Part shown: piece by piece, positions 1 to 58,557 of the stretch | Numbering within the stretch: position 1 is the first letter of the stretch | Layout of the letters: every line of letters starts with the position of its first letter | IMG/VR virus record: IMGVR_UViG_3300014964_000592 | Location: 1 to 64,000 of that record | Direction: 5' to 3' (one strand) | Source: an uncultured virus (IMG/VR IMGVR_UViG_3300014964_000592) | Taxonomy: Duplodnaviria; Heunggongvirae; Uroviricota; Caudoviricetes | Length of the DNA: 64,000 bases | Notes under the pieces: model-generated | What the model was told of the DNA's origin: nothing | What the model saw: the letters and a program-made list of their open reading frames with translations, nothing else | The model's database searches: none | Position numbers and translations under genes: made by a program

Positions 1-3000
1 GGCTATTTCCTTTTCGGAATTATCCTCCATCTGCGCGATTTCAAGTTCACGCTGATTGTTTCTTTCTTCCTGCAAAAGTTCAGCGGTACGACGTTCCTCC
101 TCCAGACGCATCTTCCGAAGTTCGTATGCCCTCTGCTTGGGGTCATCCTTACTACCGCCACCGCCTTTCTTACCACCCTTTTTAGACTTATCGCGCTTGT
201 CAAGGGCATTGAGTTGCTGTTGATAATATTTATACAACGCGCTGGACTGGTCAACCTTTTGCATCTGCGAGTTGATAGACTTGCGGATTTCGGAAAATTC
301 CTCGGTTGTTTTGGCGTTCTTAATCTGGCTTTCAAGTGCGGTCTTGATAGACTGCATGGCCTGACTTTGATTGCTTTTATTCCGATTGTAATCGCCAACC
401 ATTAAATCGCTTTTAAGCTGACGATACAAACGCTTATCCACATCGGACATACTACCCTCGTTTAACTGAGAGCCGTAGCGGTCGATGAACTGCTGTAAGA
501 TAGCTGACTGCTCGGAATTAAGATGGTAGTTCTTGCCGCCCATCTTGAAATTGCTTCGCAGACGGGCGTTCCGTACAATCGCGTTATAGGCATCCAAATC
601 GGCTTTTGCCATCTTTGTGCCGGGAGTGATTTTGCCGTTCTTTCCATACTTGGCAAGAAGATTCTGCAAGGTCTGACGTTCTGCGCCGGTCGTATTCAAG
701 ACCTGACCGCCCACATCACGGAGCGTAATCTTGATTTTGTCAAGTGTATTTAGTGCAATATCAAGATATTTGGTGTCAATGTAAGGCGTGGCTACGGCGT
801 TGTCAACGTCTTTCATCTTGTCTTCCGCTTGCGCTGCCTTAACCGACGTTTCATCCAGCGCAGTGTTGTCGGTTGTCGGCGTAGCTGACGATTCATCGAC
901 ATCGCCAATCTTGCCTTCCGCTTGTTCGGCGGCTTCAAAAAGTTCATGTATGTTGATAGGGTCTGCCAAAGGTTTGACCGGTTTTGCATTGATTTCATCA
1001 ACCTCTTTCGATACCTTTGTCAGCTCCTCGGTCAATTTCTTGGAATCAAAGGTGGAATAATCAATTTCCGGCTGTGCCGCAGCCGCACGTTCAGCGGCAT
1101 CCGCAGCGGCATTTGCTTGGGCTTGCGTCTTCTCGGTCAGCTTATCAAGCGTATTGGTTTTGTTAATAAGCTCGGAAACAAGTTTGGATGTATCCTTGAT
1201 GTCAAGAACATACTGCTCGGCAAATCCCATCTGTTTCGCCAGTGCCTTTGCATCCATGTTTGCGGTTTGGGCAATTTCCGTCTGCAAGCGGGCAATTTCT
1301 TGACGTGCCTTTACAGCGGCTGCGTTTTCAATCTTTTGACCATTCTCGGTATAGGTTACATTAGCGGCATATTCCTTTTCAGCATCCTCAAGGAGTTTGA
1401 CCATTTCAGTAAGTTCAGCCTTTTTGTTTTCCACCGTGCTTGCGATGGTATCGGCCATAATCTTGGATACCTCGGCGGCTTCACCTTTTGAGTCGTTTTC
1501 GATGATTTCTTTCATCTCATCCTTGAAAGATGTAGTTGCGGCATCCTTTTCTTCCTGAATAGTTGCAAGACGGTTAGCCATCTGTCGCGCTTCGCCCTCT
1601 GCCATAATCAGTTGGTTAAGCTGCGCACGGACTGCATTTAACTGTTCAATCTTATCTTTTTCCTTGTCGATGTGAATACCGTATTCTTCCGCAGCCTTGA
1701 TAAGCTCCTCTACGGCATCCTTATGTACCCGGCTATCCTTATTTACCGAGTTCATCACGGCATAAAGCGTGTCGATATTGTTTTTCAGCTTCAACGTGGA
1801 TTCGCCAAATCTTTCAGACATAGCGGATGATTCCTCAGCTTCATCCTTGAACGTCATAAACAGACCGATGACGGTTGTTAGGGCGGTTATTATCATGCCG
1901 AAAGGATTGGTCATAAAAGCGACCTTGAGGCCATTCCATGCGTTCTTGCAGGCGTTGGTGGCCGCAGTCAGCGCATACTTTCCGATTGTCAACGCCTTAT
2001 CTTTTGCAGTCGCAAGGGCGGTCACGATTGTGCCGCGACTGGTAGCGGCGGTATTTACGTTTGTGGCCGCAGTGTTGGCGGTAGTCGCGGTAGTTTCGCC
2101 GATGACGGCGGCTGTGGCTGTCTGCTTCTGCACGGCCTGTTGTGCGGTAATAGCGCCGTTCAGTTCCTTTTCGGCTGTATTCACGCCCTCGGCTGCTGAC
2201 TGCTGGGCGGTAATAGCGGAAGCCTGCTCTTCAACTGCGGCCATGTATTCTTCGGCGGCGGCTTTCTTATCGTCGGCATCGCCGGCGGCTTCTGCCATCT
2301 CCATCAGTTCTTTTGCAGACTCAACACGTCTTTCCGCAGCTTCTACAAGCTGGTCACTTGCGGCTTTCTGCATGTTCGCGCTTTCAAGGGCTGCTTGTTT
2401 GGTGTCAACGAGTGCCTGTGCGTAATCACGCTCATTCTGTAAGCGTTCTGCCGTGTCATTCGTAATAATTCCGTTGGCGTTGGAATCGTTGATGTCGGCA
2501 TCAAGGCCACGCCCGGCTTCTTCGCGCTGGGTCTGCATGTCCTTGAGATGCGTTTCGTAGGTCTTCTGCGCTTCTTCTGCGATACGACGCTCATTCTCGG
2601 CGATGCGCTGCTGTTCCTGCTGCCATAAACGCCCCTGCTGGATTGAGTCGGCATACGTCTGGTCGATAGACCCTTTCTCAAGAGCTTTGCGTATGTCATC
2701 GTCGTAACCCTCCATCAGTTTGGCGTTCTGCATTTCCTGAATCTTGGCAAGTTCGGCATTGAAGCCATCCACGATACCCTTTGAAGCATCGATTACGGAC
2801 TGCTTGGCCGCGAAATTGGAAAGCATTACCGAAGTCTTGTAAACACCGAAAGCCGCCGCAGCGGTGGCGAGTACCGGGATGATTCTGCCGATGTTTTCAA
2901 CGATAGTGGAAGCCGTATCAATAACGCCTACGAGCGCACCCTCCATATTCTGACCCATGTCGTTAAACATTAAGTCCATCGAGTCGTTCAGTTTGGCGAT

Positions 3001-3843
3001 TGCACCCGGTATGGTCTTTGATGCCGTTTCCGACATCTTGTAGTATTTGCCGCCCTCGCTTGTAGCGTCAAGAAATGCCTGCTGAACCATCTCGGCTGAA
3101 ATCTTGCCTTGCGACATTTCTTCCTTGAGCGCACCGATAGACTTGCCGGTCTTTTCAGAGATAACCTGCAACGGCTGAAAGCCGGCGTTTACCATCTGCA
3201 TCAAGTCCTGACCCATCAGCTTGCCTGCTGCCGACATCTGGGAAAACGCGAGCGAAAGCGACTGAAAGCGGCGGGTGTCACCCATCGCAATATCGCCGAT
3301 AGCCTGTAAGTATCGCGGAACTTTATCAGCGTCAATGCCGAAGCCGAGCATCATCTGCGCGGTGGAAACAGTGGGCGCAAATTCAAGCGGCGATATTTTG
3401 GCAAACTCCTGTAATTCGGCGTTCAGCTTCTCGCCCTTACGCTTGCCAATCATCGTTTCGATAGATGCGTTCATCTGCTGGAACTGACCGCGTATGCTTG
3501 TGATTTTGGTAAGGAACTCACCCAGACCATACACGCCGGCAAGACCGCCCACGGCCATCATCGGTCGCGTCAGTAAGTCCTGTATGCGGTTGACCTCGGT
3601 AAATATTCCACTGAGGTTTTTCTTGATGCCAAATTCCATTTCCGCACCACTGCGCATTGCGGCCTGTGCAAGCTGACGATAACGCGCCGTGCTTTCGGCG
3701 AGTTTCTTGTTCAGTGCATCAATCGACGCGCCGGCCTGCCCCGGCCTAAAATTCTGAATTTGGGTCTTGGTCTTTGCGATTTCCTGTTGTAAACGTATCA
3801 GTTCGGAGTAATCCGCATCTACGTCAAATGCTAAATATGGCAT
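1..3843 (-). CDS. Tail tape measure protein (runs off the window)
   Basis: Not in the ORF track. My translation from ATG at 3843 gives MPYLAFDVDADYSELIRLQQEIAKTK...RGQFQQMNASIETMIG...QMMLGFGIDADKVPRYLQAIGDIAMGDTRRFQSLSLAFSQMSAAGKLMGQDLMQMVNAGFQPLQVISEKTGKS, the classic tape-measure domain, followed by Ala-rich/coiled-coil sequence. The frame appears open to position 1. Confidence 0.93.
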   Translation of the reverse strand, partial: MPYLAFDVDADYSELIRLQQEIAKTKTQIQNFRPGQAGASIDALNKKLAESTARYRQLAQAAMRSGAEMEFGIKKNLSGIFTEVNRIQDLLTRPMMAVGGLAGVYGLGEFLTKITSIRGQFQQMNASIETMIGKRKGEKLNAELQEFAKISPLEFAPTVSTAQMMLGFGIDADKVPRYLQAIGDIAMGDTRRFQSLSLAFSQMSAAGKLMGQDLMQMVNAGFQPLQVISEKTGKSIGALKEEMSQGKISAEMVQQAFLDATSEGGKYYKMSETASKTIPGAIAKLNDSMDLMFNDMGQNMEGALVGVIDTASTIVENIGRIIPVLATAAAAFGVYKTSVMLSNFAAKQSVIDASKGIVDGFNAELAKIQEMQNAKLMEGYDDDIRKALEKGSIDQTYADSIQQGRLWQQEQQRIAENERRIAEEAQKTYETHLKDMQTQREEAGRGLDADINDSNANGIITNDTAERLQNERDYAQALVDTKQAALESANMQKAASDQLVEAAERRVESAKELMEMAEAAGDADDKKAAAEEYMAAVEEQASAITAQQSAAEGVNTAEKELNGAITAQQAVQKQTATAAVIGETTATTANTAATNVNTAATSRGTIVTALATAKDKALTIGKYALTAATNACKNAWNGLKVAFMTNPFGMIITALTTVIGLFMTFKDEAEESSAMSERFGESTLKLKNNIDTLYAVMNSVNKDSRVHKDAVEELIKAAEEYGIHIDKEKDKIEQLNAVRAQLNQLIMAEGEARQMANRLATIQEEKDAATTSFKDEMKEIIENDSKGEAAEVSKIMADTIASTVENKKAELTEMVKLLEDAEKEYAANVTYTENGQKIENAAAVKARQEIARLQTEIAQTANMDAKALAKQMGFAEQYVLDIKDTSKLVSELINKTNTLDKLTEKTQAQANAAADAAERAAAAQPEIDYSTFDSKKLTEELTKVSKEVDEINAKPVKPLADPINIHELFEAAEQAEGKIGDVDESSATPTTDNTALDETSVKAAQAEDKMKDVDNAVATPYIDTKYLDIALNTLDKIKITLRDVGGQVLNTTGAERQTLQNLLAKYGKNGKITPGTKMAKADLDAYNAIVRNARLRSNFKMGGKNYHLNSEQSAILQQFIDRYGSQLNEGSMSDVDKRLYRQLKSDLMVGDYNRNKSNQSQAMQSIKTALESQIKNAKTTEEFSEIRKSINSQMQKVDQSSALYKYYQQQLNALDKRDKSKKGGKKGGGGSKDDPKQRAYELRKMRLEEERRTAELLQEERNNQRELEIAQMEDNSEKEIA

Positions 3844-3870
3844 GGCTGTTGAGTTGTTATTTTCAATCAG

Positions 3871-3944
3871 CCAATTTACCATGAAAGAGGGTGTTACACA
3901 TTATTTTCCGCGCACGTATAACGTACTATCAGAAAAAAGTCGTA
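3871..3944 (-). promoter_or_regulatory. Putative late promoter of the tape-measure gene (box plus degenerate -7)
   Basis: Minus strand reads TACGAC-N12-GTACGT (3944-3921), then 42 nt, then TAAATTGG (3878-3871). The geometry matches the three other box sites. Confidence 0.5.
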
Positions 3945-6303: not shown

Positions 6304-6376
6304 CGCGGGTTGGAGCAGTTGGAAGCTCGCCAGTTTAACTTGCTGGAGGTCGTCGGTTCGAGTCCGACACCCGCTA
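6304..6376 (+). tRNA. Initiator (fMet)-like tRNA with AAC (Val) anticodon
   Basis: Cloverleaf: acceptor CGCGGGT/ACCCGCT with C1xU72 mismatch; D stem GAGC/GCTC (A11:U24); anticodon stem CCAGT/GCTGG with loop TT-AAC-TT (AAC at 6337-6339); T arm GTCGG-TTCGAGT-CCGAC; discriminator A73; CCA not encoded. Confidence 0.9.
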
Positions 6377-6404
6377 CAAATAAAATCACTTACAAACAAA
6401 ATCA

Positions 6405-6776: not shown

Positions 6777-6803
6777 TCATTAACCCTTTAACACTATAAG
6801 TGA

Positions 6804-7004
6804 GTTAGACGTAGAATTGATAACAACTATGGCCCCCGTCGGAACATGAACGGTGCCGGTGCCGGTGGCCGACTCGTAGCCCGTCGCACCCCTGCGGGCG
6901 TAGTTGCTGGTCGTAGCCAGCTCGGAAATCGTGAACAGCGTCGCGCTGACCTCCGCGCAGCCTTTGCTGACCAAATCCGCGCCGCTGGTGGAACAACCGG
7001 CTAA
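6804..7004 (+). CDS. Small Arg/Gly-rich protein with putative GTT start (66 aa)
   Basis: An in-frame TGA immediately precedes GTT. Translation: VRRRIDNNYGPRRNMNGAGAGGRLVARRTPAGVVAGRSQLGNREQRRADLRAAFADQIRAAGGTTG. An internal ATG exists at codon 15. Confidence 0.7.
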   Translation, partial: VRRRIDNNYGPRRNMNGAGAGGRLVARRTPAGVVAGRSQLGNREQRRADLRAAFADQIRAAGGTTG

Positions 7005-21291: not shown

Positions 21292-21459
21292 ATAGGATAA
21301 AATCTATATCTCAAAATAAATTATAGGGTAAAATCTATTTCTTAACAAAGATTAACAATAGGTTAAACTCTATGCTTTAATTAAAAATATAGAATATAAG
21401 TTGTGAGTTTAATTATTTCTTCTTAACTTTGCGCCGTAAAATTATAGAACAAACCCTAT
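21292..21459. promoter_or_regulatory. Divergent promoter region with four ATAG-N8-CTAT operators
   Basis: Copies at 21292, 21323, 21358 and 21444; -7 elements on both strands. Confidence 0.7.
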
Positions 21460-21727
21460 GGATATAAAACAAAAAATCAAAATGCAGGGCTTCACCATTA
21501 GTGAAGTCGCATCAAAGATGCCAAATGGCAATGGTGGATTAGGGATAAGCCAACCATCCCTGTCGGCTATTATCAACGGAAATCCCACGGTCAATAAGTT
21601 GAAAGACATCGCAGACATAATTGGACTTACCTTATCTGAACTTGTTTCAGAAGATGATGGAATGAATATGATAGCGGCTTGCCCTCATTGTGGAAAGCCA
21701 ATAACAATCAAAACTACAATAGAATGA
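21458..21727 (+). CDS. XRE-family HTH regulator with Zn ribbon
   Basis: GISQPSLSAIINGNPTVNKLKDIADIIG; CPHCG. Confidence 0.88.
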   Translation: MDIKQKIKMQGFTISEVASKMPNGNGGLGISQPSLSAIINGNPTVNKLKDIADIIGLTLSELVSEDDGMNMIAACPHCGKPITIKTTIE

Positions 21728-22610: not shown

Positions 22611-22641
22611 AAAAAGGCGACACGCCTCTCGGCGCATCGCC
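22611..22641 (-). terminator. Intrinsic terminator downstream of fmt
   Basis: Minus strand GGCGATGCGCC-gaga-GGCGTGTCGCC-TTTTT. Confidence 0.75.
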
Positions 22642-22667: not shown

Positions 22668-23951
22668 TCATTGTTGTTTGATTTCAGCAGTCACGCCGTT
22701 AGTGTCGGTCACGTCTGCCGGGTTAATCGTTTTTGCGGTATCGGGATTTTCAGCAGCCACCGACAATCCTAAATCGCAGAAGCCCTTGCAAGCTCCGCGA
22801 TAGCCGTTGAAAAATTCAGTGGCGGTCATGCGTCGCTTGTTCGGCATCTGCAATTCAAGTACGGAAAGAAGATTGTCGCCACAGGCGATGTATAGCTTTC
22901 GGTCTTGCCAGAATAGCTCGCCGGGCGCATGGTGGCCACGCGGTATGTCGGTCTTTTCCGTTCTGAAAATCTTGACGCTCATGGCCTGCTTTCCAAGCAT
23001 GGCCAGTGAAGTCCAAGCTGATGGGATTGGAGTAAGTGCGCGTATGAAGTCATAGACGTAATCGGCGGGCTTGAGCCACGGAATGATGCAGTCCTTGCGA
23101 TGTAGCTTTGGCGCGTAGCATGGCTGGATGAAGTCACAGATAAGCTCCGACTGAGGAATGGGGTTGCATGAATGGGCTATGCGCTGGATTGCATCGTCTA
23201 TCATTTCCGCGCCGGCAATGCGTAGCTTGATGTGAACGTCTTCCGCGTTATCATCTTCATCAATGCCGATGGCAAGATTGTTTATGATGCCGCCGGTGTC
23301 GATTTTGTCTTCAAGCATGAACGTTGTCACGCCGGTCATGGCATTACCATCCTTGATTGCGGATGCGATGGTGGAAGCACCGCGATACATGGGCAGCATA
23401 GATGAGTGGAGGTTGATTGTACCCCACGACGGAATGGTGTATAGCGCACGTGGCAGTATTCTGAACTCCACTACTACGCCGAGCGTCGCATGAAGATTGT
23501 GGATGTGCCGCAGAAATCTATTAGAGTCAAGTTTCCGTGGTTGAAAAACAAGGATGCCCATAGATTCGGCATAAACCTTGACCGCAGATGGCCGCAGTTT
23601 CTTGCCACGCCCGCACGGTTTATCTTCCATAGTTACGACTGCCGCGACATCATATCCGTTTTCAACAAGCATTTTTAGCGTGGGAAGCGCAAACTGCCCA
23701 TTGCCGAAGAATATGATGCGTATTCCCTTGCGTGATACAGGCTTGTCAAAATCACGTTCCGGGTATGAAACAATATCAGTTTCGTCAACAATTACATAAC
23801 CGCCGGATTTCTTCAATCGCAGAAAGTAAGAGCCATCATCTTTTGGGTATAAGATTTTGGCTTCCGTAAAAATACCGCCCCCATCATTACCGTGCAGGAG
23901 TCTGCTTGGAATTTGGACTGTCTGCCCGACGCGATAAAGAGGTGTTTTCAT
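22668..23951 (-). CDS. fmt: Methionyl-tRNA formyltransferase homologue with an extra N-terminal domain
   Basis: IRIIFFGNGQFA, VVTMEDKPCGRGKKL, INLHSSMLPMYRGASTI, IDTGGII, YAPKL and IRALTPIPSAW, plus the Fmt C-terminal domain (LELQMPNKRRMTATEFFNG). ATG at 23951 overlaps the upstream HTH stop (ATGA). Confidence 0.92.
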   Translation of the reverse strand: MKTPLYRVGQTVQIPSRLLHGNDGGGIFTEAKILYPKDDGSYFLRLKKSGGYVIVDETDIVSYPERDFDKPVSRKGIRIIFFGNGQFALPTLKMLVENGYDVAAVVTMEDKPCGRGKKLRPSAVKVYAESMGILVFQPRKLDSNRFLRHIHNLHATLGVVVEFRILPRALYTIPSWGTINLHSSMLPMYRGASTIASAIKDGNAMTGVTTFMLEDKIDTGGIINNLAIGIDEDDNAEDVHIKLRIAGAEMIDDAIQRIAHSCNPIPQSELICDFIQPCYAPKLHRKDCIIPWLKPADYVYDFIRALTPIPSAWTSLAMLGKQAMSVKIFRTEKTDIPRGHHAPGELFWQDRKLYIACGDNLLSVLELQMPNKRRMTATEFFNGYRGACKGFCDLGLSVAAENPDTAKTINPADVTDTNGVTAEIKQQ

Positions 23952-24217
23952 CGCGGCGTGGCGGTTTTGATGTCGATACGTGCGCCGCACTGCGGGCAGA
24001 TGATTGTTGCCGGGTTGGGTGCGAGGTAGTCTGTGAATAGTGATGCAACTGGTACGTCAAGAGCTTCCGCTATCTTTTCAAGGGTAGAGATGTTGGGGCT
24101 ATTCTTCTCGTTCACGATACTGCCAAGAGTCTGGGGAGCTATATTCATTTTTTCGGCAAGACTTTTCAGTGTCATACCTTTGGCGGCAACGATTGCTTTA
24201 ATTCTGAATTTTGACAT
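23948..24217 (-). CDS. XRE-family HTH regulator with Zn ribbon
   Basis: KGMTLKSLAEKMNIAPQTLGSIVN...TLEKIAEALDV; CPQCG. Confidence 0.9.
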   Translation of the reverse strand: MSKFRIKAIVAAKGMTLKSLAEKMNIAPQTLGSIVNEKNSPNISTLEKIAEALDVPVASLFTDYLAPNPATIICPQCGARIDIKTATPR

Positions 24218-29717: not shown

Positions 29718-30149
29718 ATGAAGAATGACATCTCACCCAACAAGGAAACGGTTGTCTTCGGCAATGATTCCGCAGTAATCCGTAAGTACATCAGCGGTAT
29801 CCCCGGTGGTCGTACTCTGGACTGCACCGGTTTCAAAGAAGACACCGTGCTGGCCGGCCACGTCATCATCAAGAAGACTGACGGCAAGTATGCCCCCATG
29901 CCCGTTAAGGCAGCAGTTCCGGCATCAGGCGAAACAGCCGCAACGCCCGCGAGCTACGACTCGCTTCCCGCCGGCGCAACCTACGTGGGCATCCTTTATC
30001 GCTCCATCAGCGTAAAGAACCCCGCAGCTTCCATCATGTACGATGGCGTCGTAAACGACAAATTAGTTCCCTATCCCATGACAAGCATCTTGACCGCGTT
30101 CAAGACCGCTTGCCCTCACATCATTTTTGAACAGGACGAGGAGGCCTAA
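29718..30149 (+). CDS. Probable head decoration protein
   Basis: GIPGGRTLD...VLAGHVII; lies between scaffold and capsid genes. Confidence 0.65.
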   Translation: MKNDISPNKETVVFGNDSAVIRKYISGIPGGRTLDCTGFKEDTVLAGHVIIKKTDGKYAPMPVKAAVPASGETAATPASYDSLPAGATYVGILYRSISVKNPAASIMYDGVVNDKLVPYPMTSILTAFKTACPHIIFEQDEEA

Positions 30150-30157
30150 GAATCAGA

Positions 30158-31246
30158 GTTAATCAGTCATTTTATTTCGATTACGCAAAGCGTTTCTTCC
30201 CCGGCCTTGTGCTGGCTATCGTAGAACGCCTCAACGAGAAGCGTGCCAATTCCGCTCTCACCTACCTTTACAAAGAAAAACTTCGCCCGCAGTTTTCGCT
30301 TGATGGCCGCTGGGCTTCCATCCTTGCGGAATACACCCGCGTAGCCGCCGACGTTGTGGCACTTGACTCCGAGCTTCCGCTCAAGAGCCGTGACACACTG
30401 GAGGTTGCTTCCGGCACAATTCCCAAAATCGGTATGAAGCTCTACCTGACCGAAAAGCAGATGAAAGACGTTGACTCGATGATTGCGCAGGGTGTTCCCC
30501 TCCAGACCATCATCGACAACATCTTCGCTGATACCCCCCGTTGCATCGAGGGCATCTGGGAGCGCATCGAAGACATCTTCCTTTCGGAGCTTTCGTCGGG
30601 TGTCGGCGTTTCCGAGCGCAACAACGGCACAGGTGTGCGCATCAACATGAATTTCTATGACGACAACCAGTTCGCTGTTTCCAAACTTTGGAGCAACACC
30701 GACGCAACTCCGCTTGACGACATCCAGAAACTTGTTGACAAGTCCATTACCGACGCAAACACCATCATCGACGCATACGCTGACGACACCGCCCTCGGTC
30801 TTCTCTACAAGAACAAGCAGGTGCGTTCACAGTTCGCGTTCAATCAGGGCATCGCCATGACCGGTTCGACCACCGTGCCGGTGCTTGACTTTGCGAAGCT
30901 CCAGCAGATTTTCCTCACCAAGTGGAACATCAATCTGCACCGCGTCGCCCGCCGTGTCAAGACCGAGCTTAACGGCGAAAAGAAAAACCATACCCCGTGG
31001 AAGACCGGAACAATTTCCTTTGTCTGCGATGAAGAGCTTGGCTCACTCGTATGGACTAACGTTGCCGAGGCTTCGCGCCCCGTTGAAGGCGTTGTCTATC
31101 AGACTGCCGACCAGTACATCCTCGCAAAGAAATATTCCAAGACCGACCCCCTCCGCGAGTTTACCGCTTCCGAGGCTATGGTTGTGCCTGTGTTGAACAA
31201 CGTTGACCGCATCTACACGCTCGACACTCAGACAGTTCAGGAATGA
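30158..31246 (+). CDS. Major capsid protein with putative GTT start (362 aa)
   Basis: AADVVALDSELPLKSR, GTIPKIG, ATPLDDI and TDPLREFT motifs. The frame extends 17 codons upstream of the GTG at 30209 to GTT-AAT-CAG (VNQSFYFDYAKRFFPGLV), with no ATG/GTG/TTG back to the in-frame TGA at 30128. Confidence 0.88.
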   Translation, partial: VNQSFYFDYAKRFFPGLVLAIVERLNEKRANSALTYLYKEKLRPQFSLDGRWASILAEYTRVAADVVALDSELPLKSRDTLEVASGTIPKIGMKLYLTEKQMKDVDSMIAQGVPLQTIIDNIFADTPRCIEGIWERIEDIFLSELSSGVGVSERNNGTGVRINMNFYDDNQFAVSKLWSNTDATPLDDIQKLVDKSITDANTIIDAYADDTALGLLYKNKQVRSQFAFNQGIAMTGSTTVPVLDFAKLQQIFLTKWNINLHRVARRVKTELNGEKKNHTPWKTGTISFVCDEELGSLVWTNVAEASRPVEGVVYQTADQYILAKKYSKTDPLREFTASEAMVVPVLNNVDRIYTLDTQTVQE

Positions 31247-32942: not shown

Positions 32943-32967
32943 TTAACCCCTTAACACCCATAAACGA

Positions 32968-33516
32968 GTTACAAACAACGCACCCAAAGTTTGCGCGGTC
33001 GGCATCAAAAAGCTGTACTATGCCGACACCAGCAAGGTAACGGCAGACCTTACCGGCGCATTGCTCGCCGCACTGCTTGCCGACGAAGCCACCAAGGAAG
33101 TCAAGAACATCCATCAGGACACGTGGACTATCGAAGAGAGCGAAGCCTCGCAGGACGGCTATCGCAATCAGCTCACCGGTTCTATCTACCGCATGGGAAC
33201 GAAGACCATGGGCGACGTAACTTTCAACTGGACTATCGGTCAGTACGACTATCCTACCAAGGCTGAGTTCCTCGGTGGTGTCGCTACCGACAAGTCGTGG
33301 AAGCGTCCCCGCGGTGTCGTCGAAATCCACAAAGTCCTCATCGCACTCACCGAAGACAATCAGTATTGCGTTCTGCCCTACGCCAACGTAGCCGGTCGTG
33401 AAGCCAACACCGACGGCGCAGTAGGTCTGGGTATCGTCGGAACGGCAATGGAGCCTACCGACCCCAACATCGCATCCGAATACTGGTTCGACTCTTCCGA
33501 GGTAGTGACCGCGTAA
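32968..33516 (+). CDS. Major tail (tube) protein with putative GTT start (182 aa)
   Basis: GTT ACA AAC...VTNNAPKVCAVGIKKLYYAD...VKNIHQDTWTIEE...FNWTIGQYD. In-frame TAA at 32944 and no canonical start before the TTG at 33061. Confidence 0.82.
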   Translation, partial: VTNNAPKVCAVGIKKLYYADTSKVTADLTGALLAALLADEATKEVKNIHQDTWTIEESEASQDGYRNQLTGSIYRMGTKTMGDVTFNWTIGQYDYPTKAEFLGGVATDKSWKRPRGVVEIHKVLIALTEDNQYCVLPYANVAGREANTDGAVGLGIVGTAMEPTDPNIASEYWFDSSEVVTA

Positions 33517-49206: not shown

Positions 49207-50076
49207 ATGAAGACCCTTAACGACGAAATCAACGAAATCAAAATCGCTAACAATAGCAAGGCGGCCAAGAAAGCCGCCCTCGCAAAACTGGGCATCACGC
49301 CCTACGAAATCGACATCATTCTTGAGGGTGTTGAATGTGCCACCCGTGGTCGCTTCACCTTTGGCGTAGAAATGGAGTGCTTCGTCAACCGAGGCGCAAT
49401 CAGAAACGCCGCAGAACGCACTGGTATGGCCTACGAATACGAGGGCTACAACCACCGCGACGGTCACGACTACTTTAAGTTTGTATCAGACGGCTCGGTG
49501 CGCGGTCTGGCTGACCCCATTGAATGTGTGTCGCCGGTGTTGGCTGGCACAAACGGCAAGCGCACACTGAAAGCCGCTTGCAAGACGCTGAACACCGCAA
49601 ACGCCCGCGTAAACAGCACATGCGGTTTGCACGTACACATCGGCGCAGCCAATCTGACCGGCAAGCAGTTTGCCAACGTGTTTGCCAACTATGCGATGCT
49701 TGAGGCAGTCATCGACACCTTTATGTCGCCCTCACGTCGCAACAACGAATATGCCGCAAGCATACAGTCACAGGTCAGATACCTTATGCCGGCCAATAGC
49801 GTAGGCGAGGTGCAAAGAGCCTTACGTGACAACCGCTACTGGAAAATCAACCCCATGGCATACAACCGCCATAAGACGATTGAATTTAGGCAGCACGCCG
49901 GCACGACCAACTACGACAAAATCATCAACTGGGTCACTTTCTGCGGCAAGCTCGTCATCTGGTCAAAGAAAAACCGCCTGACCGCCCCGGTTGCAAGCAT
50001 CGACGAGATACCCTTTCTGAACGCTGACGAAAAAGCCTTTTTCAAGGCACGTGCCAATCAGTTTGCAAGCCGTTAA
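49207..50076 (+). CDS. Putative amidoligase (COOH-NH2 ligase type 2)
   Basis: FTFGVEMEC, DGSV, ECVSPVL, STCGLHVHIG and KTIEFRQHAGT motifs. Confidence 0.88.
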   Translation: MKTLNDEINEIKIANNSKAAKKAALAKLGITPYEIDIILEGVECATRGRFTFGVEMECFVNRGAIRNAAERTGMAYEYEGYNHRDGHDYFKFVSDGSVRGLADPIECVSPVLAGTNGKRTLKAACKTLNTANARVNSTCGLHVHIGAANLTGKQFANVFANYAMLEAVIDTFMSPSRRNNEYAASIQSQVRYLMPANSVGEVQRALRDNRYWKINPMAYNRHKTIEFRQHAGTTNYDKIINWVTFCGKLVIWSKKNRLTAPVASIDEIPFLNADEKAFFKARANQFASR

Positions 50077-50167
50077 ACCGCCTATCGTGTTAGGGGTTGA
50101 AACATACCCCTAACACCCCTTAAATAACCCCTACAATCAATCAACAACCGCAAAATAGATATACACC

Positions 50168-50746
50168 ATGTGCGTCATCATAGTTAAGCCGGCAGGCGTA
50201 AAAATGCCCTCAAACGAAATCATCAACGCAGCCTACAACGCTAACCCCCACGGATGCGGCATCGTATCGCCGTCAGCCTTTTACAAGGGTCTGAGCTATC
50301 GTAGCTTCAAAAAGTGCCTTAAACAAGTCAGCCAAGACGAGCCGTGCATCATACACTTTCGCCTTGCTACCCATGGCTCAATCAAGCAGGCGAATTGCCA
50401 CCCCTTTCGCCGTGGCGATGTATGGTTTGCACATAACGGAATATTAGACATCAGACCGGTGGGCGACATGACCGACAGTGAAACCGCCCTACAAAATATC
50501 ATCTACCCGGCTATCGTCAAGTATGGCTATGGCTCTGACGGCATGGATTTAGCCGTCGCCAAGGTCATAGGCTATTCAAAATTTGCCTTTCTGCAAGGCG
50601 ATGATGTGCGTCTTTATGGCGATTTCATCAAGTCTGACGATGGATGTTACTACTCAAATTTACGCTTCATGCCTTATGTGGGCTGGCATCGGAATTACCG
50701 TAACTCAGCCAACAAAATGGGGTCTTTGATTACAACCGGGCGATAG
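50168..50746 (+). CDS. Class II (Ntn) glutamine amidotransferase
   Basis: N-terminal MC, NPHGCG, HFRLATHG, NCHPF, AHNGI and TDSE motifs. Confidence 0.9.
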   Translation: MCVIIVKPAGVKMPSNEIINAAYNANPHGCGIVSPSAFYKGLSYRSFKKCLKQVSQDEPCIIHFRLATHGSIKQANCHPFRRGDVWFAHNGILDIRPVGDMTDSETALQNIIYPAIVKYGYGSDGMDLAVAKVIGYSKFAFLQGDDVRLYGDFIKSDDGCYYSNLRFMPYVGWHRNYRNSANKMGSLITTGR

Positions 50747-58111: not shown

Positions 58112-58285
58112 ATGCTTTGGATTGGAAATAAAGAGGTCGGTCAGCTTTGGATAGGCCAAAAGCAAGTGCAAGCCCTTTATGTCGGAGCTAAACTTGTATG
58201 GGAAGCCGTCAGCAGTTGCTTCGGTAGCGGCTTTTGGCGAGAAAAGCTACCATGGAAAGGGAAAGACGCATGGAAAAATTTTTAA
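58112..58285 (+). CDS. Small tail-associated protein (57 aa)
   Basis: MLWIGNKEVGQLWIGQKQVQALYVGAKLVWEAVSSCFGSGFWREKLPWKGKDAWKNF. Confidence 0.7.
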   Translation: MLWIGNKEVGQLWIGQKQVQALYVGAKLVWEAVSSCFGSGFWREKLPWKGKDAWKNF

Positions 58286-58305
58286 CCCCAAATACTGTAT
58301 AACGA

Positions 58306-58557
58306 GTTAAGAAAATCACAAAATGGATTAAGGAAAGCAATCGCTACAAGCATCTCGCAGGGGGCATCGCAATAGGCATGGTCAGCAATACGCCTTATTG
58401 CGCTGCCCTTTGCGGCTGTGGCGTTGCATCCGCACTTGAGCTAAAAGATAAGCTCTGGGGCGGTGAATGGGATTGGATAGACTGGTCGCTGACCGTCGCC
58501 GGTGTCGCCATCGGCTATTCCATCCGAGTAGGCATCACATTACTGATTAAATCCTGA
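58306..58557 (+). CDS. Small membrane protein with putative GTT start (83 aa)
   Basis: Sequence reads TAA CGA GTT AAG AAA...: VKKITKWIKESNRYKHLAGGIAIGM...ELKDKLWGGEWDWIDWSLTVAG. It fills the gap between flanking genes; the first ATG is codon 25. Confidence 0.72.
   Translation, partial: VKKITKWIKESNRYKHLAGGIAIGMVSNTPYCAALCGCGVASALELKDKLWGGEWDWIDWSLTVAGVAIGYSIRVGITLLIKS

Follow-up and report, generated by a model that had tools for sequence, protein, structure and literature searches.

Altered formyltransferase, initiator-bodied tRNA and genes opening at GTT suggest an alternative translation initiation system in gut phages of Muribaculaceae

The first 64,000 nucleotides (nt) of the IMG/VR record IMGVR_UViG_3300014964_000592, here called the window (the whole record is a provirus of 72,347 bases with a CheckV completeness of 74%), carry a formyltransferase gene of the Fmt family, a transfer RNA (tRNA) with the body of an initiator and the anticodon AAC, and a group of phage genes that seem to open at GTT. 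According to our analysis, the enzyme probably formylates a valyl-tRNA, formed on this alternative initiator, and the three parts probably constitute a phage-encoded system of alternative initiation. What can be read directly from the sequence are the changes in the enzyme, the initiator body of the tRNA, the candidate GTT, GTA and GTC starts, the way in which these starts follow the anticodon, and the joint presence of the three parts. Taken on its own, the enzyme is an altered version of the known Fmt family, and the novelty appears to lie in the three-part system. Coordinates of all features are collected in Table 1.

The formyltransferase, which we call the long form, shares the N-terminus MK.P.Y with 10/10 relatives in the alignment. 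Its closest solved structures are those of Fmt (4iqf, 1fmt/2fmt and 5uai, with E of about 1e-45), and it is 34% identical to the E. coli protein. An AlphaFold2 model of the full protein, built from 74 sequences (predicted local distance difference test, pLDDT, 91.7; predicted template modelling score, pTM, 0.88), matches Fmt chains in Foldseek with template modelling (TM) scores of 0.87-0.91 by target length (0.87 for E. coli Fmt), and the nearest structures are all Fmt. The two-domain architecture of Fmt is present, the catalytic residues N180, H182 and D218 correspond to N108, H110 and D146 of E. coli and are invariant across the 74 aligned sequences, and the tRNA insertion loop can be aligned with its E. 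coli counterpart, D110, G114 and R115 being conserved at the sequence level. That the N-x-H, the Asp and the tRNA loop are retained had been stated in the original prediction for this gene, and the alignment to E. coli Fmt agrees with it.

The same prediction placed an SH3/KOW/Tudor-like barrel at the N-terminus, with RNA as a possible ligand, and as an assignment to a fold class this holds. In the full model this part is a small four-stranded barrel with pLDDT above 90 (75.9 when it is modelled alone), and its fold matches, namely PWWP, Tudor, chromo, KOW and SH3-like domains, have Z of 6-8.3, a range which is common for small barrels and indicates the fold class only. No sequence family was found for the barrel in Pfam, and its matches in the ESM atlas are only generic. 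At the other end of the protein residues 400-427 are predicted to form a disordered tail that belongs to no family. The proposed translational coupling to a gene of an XRE-type helix-turn-helix (HTH) regulator is confirmed by an ATGA overlap of the two genes, and the proposed terminator was located as a hairpin followed by a T-run shortly past the stop codon.

A protein search returned 47 further clusters (395-434 amino acids, 40-88% identity) whose match includes the N-terminal extension; the next hits, at about 43% identity, are ordinary Fmts of Bacteroidota, about 325 amino acids long. We compared the 48 long-form clusters with 73 canonical Bacteroidota Fmts, using Salmonella Fmt as an anchor for the E. 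coli numbering. Relative to E. coli Fmt, the motif G-T-P-D-F has become G-N-G-Q-F, V-V-A-Y has become V-V-E-F and G-A-A-P-I has become G-A-S-T-I, and the long forms do not have the canonical set of the G-T-P-x-F loop, Ala89 and the G-A-A/S-P-I loop. Residue by residue, position 11 is N in 48/48 long forms and T in 73/73 canonical ones, position 12 is G in 47/48 and P in 72/73, position 89 is acidic in 48/48 (E in 42, D in 6) and A in 73/73, position 121 is S in 48/48 and A in 73/73, position 122 is T in 43/48 and P in 73/73, position 125 is S in 41/48 and W in 65/73, and position 182 is A in 46/48 and T in 73/73. In the window protein the clade-specific residues are N84, G85, E162, S193, T194 and S197. 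The changed positions sit in three loops, which flank the catalytic residues in sequence and may, as the original prediction proposed, lie near the methionine pocket.

In relatives among the formyltransferases the acceptor is held by the first loop and the end of strand 4, and the G-N-G of the first loop may presumably be likened to the phosphate-binding loop of PurN. The position of the acidic residue is the one of Ala89 in E. coli Fmt and Ser125 in human mitochondrial MTFMT, which is reportedly very sensitive to substitution (Sinha et al. 2014, J Biol Chem), activity being lost with Leu; this points to a role in the active site. In the long forms the acidic residue is fixed and presumably functional.

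A pattern scan over one genome per GTDB species found the motif FFGNGxFA only in the four long-form prophages, and picked up 76 other Fmt loci through RGAS[TP]I. These 76 loci, selected by that pattern, have S121 in 76/76, E or D at position 89 in none, T122 in none, N11 in one and G12 in one, and, being Fmts from other phyla, they keep T11 in 69/76, P12 in 70/76 and A89 in 70/76. The original claim of three altered conserved motifs has therefore to be narrowed: N11/G12, E/D89 and mostly T122 are fixed in the clade, and A121S is ordinary elsewhere. A distant long form (locus L017, 36% identity) keeps G-N-G, V-V-E-F and the barrel but differs in the third loop. A phylogeny had been proposed as a check, and in a quick maximum-likelihood tree the 48 long forms make one clade (Shimodaira-Hasegawa-like approximate likelihood ratio test, SH-aLRT, 100), which adjoins host-type canonical Bacteroidota Fmts and whose stem has a length of 0.97 changes per column. 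By this sequence evidence the gene is derived from a Bacteroidota Fmt, and the same replacements across 40-100% identity point to a constrained new state and not to drift. Elsewhere, a jumbo phage of 317 kb (record G022, locus L019) has a Fmt of ordinary length, 29% identical and without the N-terminal extension.

We aligned the tRNA of the window with host initiator tRNAs from two genomes (Muribaculaceae and Lepagella), which themselves have C1.U72 or C1.C72, three G-C pairs in the anticodon stem and CAU. The window tRNA has the C1.U72 mismatch, the pairs G2-C71, C3-G70 and G4-C69, A11:U24 and A73. In its acceptor stem, D arm, variable loop and T arm it resembles the host initiators, and the sole difference is the anticodon arm, where the loop reads UUAACUU, the three loop-side stem pairs are A-U, G-C and U.G, and the initiator combination of three G-C pairs with CAU is absent. 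Over nine diverse tRNAs the cloverleaf is paired in 180/180 cells, compensatory changes occur in 12/20 pairs, and 1:72 is never paired. C1.U72 or C1.C72 is found in all 10 aligned tRNAs, and A11:U24 in 9/9. An elongator tRNA-Val combines NAC and A73 with a closed 1:72 pair and a purine at position 37; here NAC and A73 are present, but the 1:72 mismatch is constant and U stands at position 37. A35, C36 and A73 are given as the identity set of valyl-tRNA synthetase (ValRS) by Scopelliti et al. 2025 (bioRxiv 10.64898/2025.12.21.695813). Because the acceptor end equals that of the host initiator, what sets this substrate apart for the enzyme would be the amino acid for which the anticodon stands.

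The third part of the system was seen when stop-to-stop frames of the window were compared with the diverged relatives G005 and G008 (Fmt identity 57-60%), divergent matches only being considered. Two genes stood out, in which the conservation of amino acids extends well upstream of the first ATG, GTG or TTG. In all, at least four phage genes are, judged by their frames, without a usable ATG, GTG or TTG and have their putative start at a GTT preceded by GA. In the major head protein gene of the window this GTT stands nine codons past an in-frame stop, with the first canonical start 17 codons downstream. In five AAC genomes it stands 0-9 codons past the stop (immediately after TGA in G002, G003 and G008), the canonical start following 17-20 codons later, and in six genomes the head gene is without any canonical start. 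The 17 intervening codons, compared between G000 and G009, include 7 synonymous and 6 non-synonymous changes and 4 identical codons. Among 120 database homologues of the head protein 65 are full length, and in 62 of those 65 a Met falls exactly at the GTT valine; the 55 closest ones, the called product of the window among them, have shortened calls that begin at various places inside the gene, which looks as though the gene callers had found no start. The IMG/VR homologues of the head gene have ATG at this position in 47 of 49 cases, GTT in one and GTA in one. As a separate observation, codons of the ..DEEA end of the preceding gene form GAGGAGG 8-13 nt before the head start (window 30147-30157, and the ATG-type homologues L290-L338); this is Shine-Dalgarno-like, unusual in Bacteroidota, and lost in G008.

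The second gene, in the structural module, has its first canonical start 31 codons downstream of the GTT, and in its G005 homologue the GTT comes one codon past the stop and the canonical start 75 codons later. The first canonical start of the small membrane-like gene lies 24 codons downstream. The fourth, a small Arg-rich open reading frame (ORF) close to the tRNA, belongs to a family that matches nothing in PHROG or Pfam. The members of this family are conserved Arg-/Gly-rich proteins of 56-66 amino acids with the core ..GPRRNMNGAGAGGRLV.., and they are constant neighbours of the tRNA in AAC and GAC phages. The possible fifth gene (Table 1) is a weaker case, its N-terminal part being seen only in near-identical genomes. 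In all the GTT-start genes GA occupies -2/-1, and in most of them A stands at +4. Three of them are preceded by TTAACCCY, and these three are the only matches in the window, against 0.38 expected; the motif may serve these genes as a promoter or as some other signal for initiation. Two of the GTT-start genes are overlapped by antisense ORFs with an ATG, for which PHROG gave no match. In a genome-wide count of the post-stop codons that open long ORFs GTT ranked only 9th to 24th of 58 codons, since shadow frames swamp such a count taken without context; with the GA..A context GTT has the highest fraction (4-5 of 14-16), the numbers being small.

The start codon follows the anticodon. A tRNA of the same kind with the anticodon UAC (stem pairs G-C, G-C and U.G in G009) is found in records G009 and G010, which have a long Fmt of 36% identity, and the G009 homologue of the head gene (67% identity) begins at GTA directly after TGA. 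A wider pattern scan gave 30 more phage records (G023-G052, loci L241-L270) with initiator-bodied tRNAs, 27 of them with GAC, 2 with AAC and 1 with CAC; in most of these tRNAs the loop is of the type UUGACUU and 1:72 is mismatched as C.A, U.C or U.U. In 46 records we looked for the small ORF, taking as a start a codon with GA at -2/-1, an in-frame stop within the 7 codons before it and no intervening canonical start. The ORF opens 412-525 nt downstream of the tRNA (about 440 nt in GAC phages), and its start is the cognate one, GTC in 27/27 GAC records, GTT in 14/16 AAC records and GTA in 2/2 UAC records, with GA before every one of them; in the single CAC record no cognate small ORF was found. 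For AAC and GAC records together the count is 41/43, and since many of the tRNA records are near-copies it stands for three or four independent lineages, not for 43 events. The small proteins of AAC and GAC records are one Arg-rich family, 61-63% identical and aligned from residue 1.

Moreover, GA-GUN-A in the messenger RNA (mRNA) is complementary to the tRNA loop (U38, U37, the anticodon and U33), which suggests, at least on paper, that pairing at the start may go beyond the triplet, GA meeting U37-U38. The title of PMC10018350 has the idea that position 37 and base -1 form a fourth pair. The head gene of G029, a record with a GAC tRNA, starts at ATG. In the same record a possible GTC start was considered for a portal candidate (G029:34648), to which the PHROG profile aligns only from residue 18.

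The enzyme and the tRNA travel together. In IMG/VR a tight pattern of the tRNA occurs in 15 records and the long Fmt in 11, the window's own record left out, and both are present in 10/10 records that span both positions, the window included. Thus the co-occurrence with the AAC tRNA, which the original prediction had named as a check, is observed. The six records with the tRNA only and the two with Fmt only are fragments in which the position of the partner lies beyond the contig end. In complete relatives the two are 14.5-18.3 kb apart, and the association reaches the 36%-identical branch, where the tRNA is UAC and the gene order is different. None of the 47 relatives with an ATG head gene has any Fmt (the search covered 49 records, 14 of them with a completeness of 90% or more), and of these 47 only G029 carries this type of tRNA. 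Records that have the tRNA and the small ORF and no Fmt indicate that the tRNA-plus-small-ORF module is wider than the enzyme, which itself appears, from the records compared, to be restricted to a lineage of about 100 kb in which the head gene and other genes have moved to GTT or GTA.

From this information it would be logical to suggest the following course of events. The tRNA keeps the acceptor stem, D arm and T arm of the host initiator, that is the parts read by Fmt and by the initiation machinery, and with the new AAC anticodon arm, through A35, C36 and A73, it would be charged with valine by host ValRS. The phage enzyme would formylate this Val-tRNA better than host Fmt does, its three remodelled loops (T11N/P12G, A89E and A121S/P122T/W125S) being possibly adapted to a smaller branched side chain. 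The formylvalyl-tRNA would then enter the P site and start translation at GA-GUU, where GA may pair with U37/U38, and the genes started by formylvaline (fVal) would be that of the major head protein, another one in the structural module and no fewer than two small ones. On balance we are inclined to see here a natural start-codon recoding in gut phages of Muribaculaceae and related bacteria, with a Val-charged initiator-derived tRNA acting at GUU, GUA or GUC through a quintuplet-like GA-GUN match, a captured host Fmt re-specified for valyl-tRNA and provided with a barrel, and structural translation that depends on phage factors. Its purpose may be a safety switch for late genes or lysogeny, which is an option because the formyltransferase gene is coupled to the XRE regulator, or independence from the host initiator pool, or an escape from defences directed at the initiator.

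Several points weigh against such a reading. In E. coli, missing G-C pairs of the anticodon stem and a U37 would impair an initiator, and the window tRNA is without two of the three pairs and has U37. The amino acid of the tRNA is deduced from its anticodon alone. On the side of the enzyme, A121S is common in ordinary Fmts, as the pattern-selected loci show, P122 is kept in 5/48 long forms, and it is not obvious how an acidic residue at position 89 would be an adaptation to valine. Two AAC records, G001 and G020 (loci L373 and L372), are without a cognate GTT small ORF; the Fmt of G001 is 100% identical to that of the window, yet the cognate small ORF is absent there. The Fmt-bearing records are all one phage lineage and their co-occurrence counts are not independent, and the sister-tRNA records found in the wider scan are 30/30 without Fmt, 4 of them being at least 90% complete. 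From the latter it follows that the tRNA can work without a phage enzyme, and in those phages the host enzyme, or no formylation at all, evidently suffices. Of the original idea of a Fmt re-aimed at Val-tRNA, then, the initiator-bodied AAC tRNA, the constant company of tRNA and enzyme and the cognate GTT/GTA starts speak strongly, if indirectly, in favour, and the phages without Fmt speak against a strict requirement for the enzyme.

An ordinary auxiliary Fmt, which during infection would simply supply more formylation of Met-tRNAfMet or of any initiator-bodied tRNA, with motif changes due to drift, seems to us an unlikely, if serious, explanation. Drift agrees poorly with the long stem branch and with T11, P12 and A89, which are near-universal elsewhere, yet are replaced in the same way in 47-48 of 48 long forms; that A121S is common in other Fmts would suit it. 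The window protein passes the NCBIfam fmt equivalog TIGR00460, although marginally (217.8 bits against a cut-off of 201.5), and the triad, the insertion loop and the C-terminal domain are intact, as an auxiliary enzyme would require. Such an enzyme would be added to hosts that already possess their own one: 4/4 host genomes carry a canonical fmt (268-279 bits on TIGR00460) beside the prophage copy (195.6-207.4 bits). Sister tRNAs function in phages without Fmt, and according to Scopelliti et al. 2025 overexpression of unaltered FMT alone raised GUU initiation by an engineered tRNA about 3-fold, both of which suit this view. Against it, the gene turned up only in phages that begin abundant structural genes with GTT or GTA.

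We give little chance to the view that tRNA and enzyme are a back-up or decoy against a host attack on Met-tRNAfMet, GTT being used only then or being read by the host initiator. The part replaced in the tRNA is precisely the anticodon arm, which such nucleases recognise, and phage tRNAs have been argued to evade defences that target the anticodon loop (PMC10264068). Yet the head genes without a canonical start in six genomes imply that GTT or GTA is needed routinely, and the co-variation of anticodon and start codon argues against reading by the host CAU initiator; besides, evasion is compatible with initiation by fVal and may be the selective reason for it. Smaller still is the chance that the enzyme has left tRNA formylation for another acceptor or another acyl or folate donor, the barrel aiming it at some other target and the link to the tRNA being mere synteny. 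In favour of this, the altered first loop and strand-4 end hold the acceptor in relatives, the N-terminal domain and C-terminal tail have no family and the records are all one lineage. Against it, the whole clade conserves the tRNA-recognition loop and the C-terminal domain, with which ordinary Fmt holds its tRNA, only Fmts are found among the closest structures, and the association extends to the 36%-identical UAC branch with its different gene order.

Compared with known systems, the phage enzyme shares with E. coli Fmt (1FMT/2FMT; TIGR00460) the two domains, the Asn-His-Asp triad and the tRNA insertion loop, and it is expected to read the same acceptor stem; only the phage protein has the barrel, the disordered tail and the changes T11N, P12G, A89E/D, A121S, P122T and W/R125S. 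Unlike the E. coli enzyme it is encoded by a prophage beside the host fmt, and its likely substrate is Val-charged. Gut phages are known to recode stop codons by means of phage suppressor tRNAs, which are proposed to gate late or lytic genes. In both cases a phage tRNA would change how a codon of structural or late genes is understood and a proper reading would need phage factors, whereas here it is a start codon that would be recoded, by an initiator-derived tRNA and with a dedicated modifying enzyme.

Our main proposal is modelled on work with engineered initiator tRNAs (i-tRNA) in E. coli. As Scopelliti et al. 2025 describe, engineered i-tRNA-AAC initiates proteins with Val or fVal at GUU codons, and its bottlenecks are charging by ValRS and formylation, the latter being eased by the FMT overexpression mentioned above; a Vmax of Fmt about 60-fold lower on Val-charged initiator is cited there. 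Further work on engineered i-tRNA-AAC and GUU is that of Vincent et al. 2021 (bioRxiv 10.1101/2021.05.25.445580). The initiator body, the AAC anticodon and the GUU start are common to the engineered and the phage tRNA, and Val or fVal initiation and the formylation bottleneck are known for the engineered one. The phage tRNA differs in being natural, in the replacement of the whole anticodon arm (U37/U38 and no three G-C pairs) and in the GA before every start, and the phage formylase is an altered paralogue in place of an overexpressed wild-type FMT. Phage biocontainment with an amber-suppressor initiator tRNA (bioRxiv 10.1101/2024.07.29.605542) likewise makes phage genes rely on a non-AUG start and a special initiator tRNA; that system is synthetic, with a host-supplied tRNA and a UAG start, whereas the phage described here brings its own tRNA and enzyme.

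In the literature we found no natural counterpart of the three-part start-codon system, only engineered ones. If our proposal is true, this would be the first known natural case of a virus-borne sense-codon initiator tRNA together with a start-codon vocabulary and a tailored formylase, hitherto a design of synthetic biology only, and start-codon reassignment would join the known modes of translation recoding in phages. It would also explain truncated or missed gene calls, at least 55 capsid clusters in public data being called short, would offer a ready-made orthogonal initiation pair of tRNA and enzyme for engineering, and would make a natural experiment on the amino-acid specificity of Fmt and on the P-site requirements of initiators.

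Table 1. Features of the window discussed in the text (positions are those of the window; residues are those of the long-form formyltransferase)
Feature	Position	Strand	Evidence or remark
Initiator-bodied tRNA, anticodon AAC	6304..6377	+	ARAGORN, Rfam
Long-form formyltransferase gene, 427 amino acids: barrel, Fmt catalytic domain, Fmt C-terminal tRNA-binding domain, disordered tail	22668..23951	-	
N-terminal small beta-barrel, SH3/Tudor/KOW-like fold class	residues 1-72 = 23736..23951	-	
Formyl_trans_N	residues 78-251 = 23199..23720	-	Pfam 3e-29
Formyl_trans_C	residues 282-385 = 22797..23108	-	Pfam 3e-19
XRE-type HTH regulator gene	23948..24217	-	TGA overlaps formyltransferase ATG as ATGA
Terminator-like hairpin, 11 pairs (8 G-C), then T-run	22616..22641	-	27 nt past formyltransferase stop
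Major head protein gene, putative start GA GTT A	30158..31246	+	phrog_29 3.6e-31; Pfam Phage_cap_E
Structural-module gene, putative start GTT	32968..33516	+	phrog_14600 4.6e-64, profile 4-176 on residues 8-180 of its product
Small membrane-like gene, putative start GTT	58306..58557	+	phrog_38535 4.6e-32, profile 2-77 on residues 2-77 of its product
Small Arg-rich ORF, 66 codons, putative start GTT directly after TGA	6804..7004	+	427 nt past tRNA
Possible fifth gene with a GTT start (GA GTT A, one codon past stop), 228 codons	9236..9922	+	
TTAACCCY motif	6780..6790	+	24 nt before GTT
TTAACCCY motif	32943..32953	+	25 nt before GTT
TTAACCCY motif	58282..58292	+	24 nt before GTT
Tape measure protein	4-3882	-	PHROG
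Large terminase	11494		PHROG
Portal	12804		PHROG
DnaN-like clamp	25966		PHROG

By PHROG annotation the gene content of the window is that of a tailed phage, and apart from the genes in Table 1 it includes an endolysin, a helicase, an anti-repressor and several XRE regulators, along with two proteins of giant size. Prophages closely related to it occur in genomes of Muribaculaceae, in Lepagella muris and in a metagenome-assembled genome (MAG) named 'Bacteroides'. It is a mouse-gut phage, and near-identical DNA is present in mouse-gut metagenome runs; among the sequencing runs with this stretch there were mouse-gut DNA contigs only and no RNA run. A peptide deformylase gene was found in none of the 5/5 records of the window's phage group. 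Two XRE-HTH proteins, at 21458-21727 (+) and 23948-24217 (-), are placed divergently, and both have a C-terminal CPxCG zinc-ribbon-like tail. At 49207-50743 (+), amidoligase-like and glutamine-amidotransferase-like genes stand directly before the gene of a 2261-amino-acid protein with tail-fibre-like parts.

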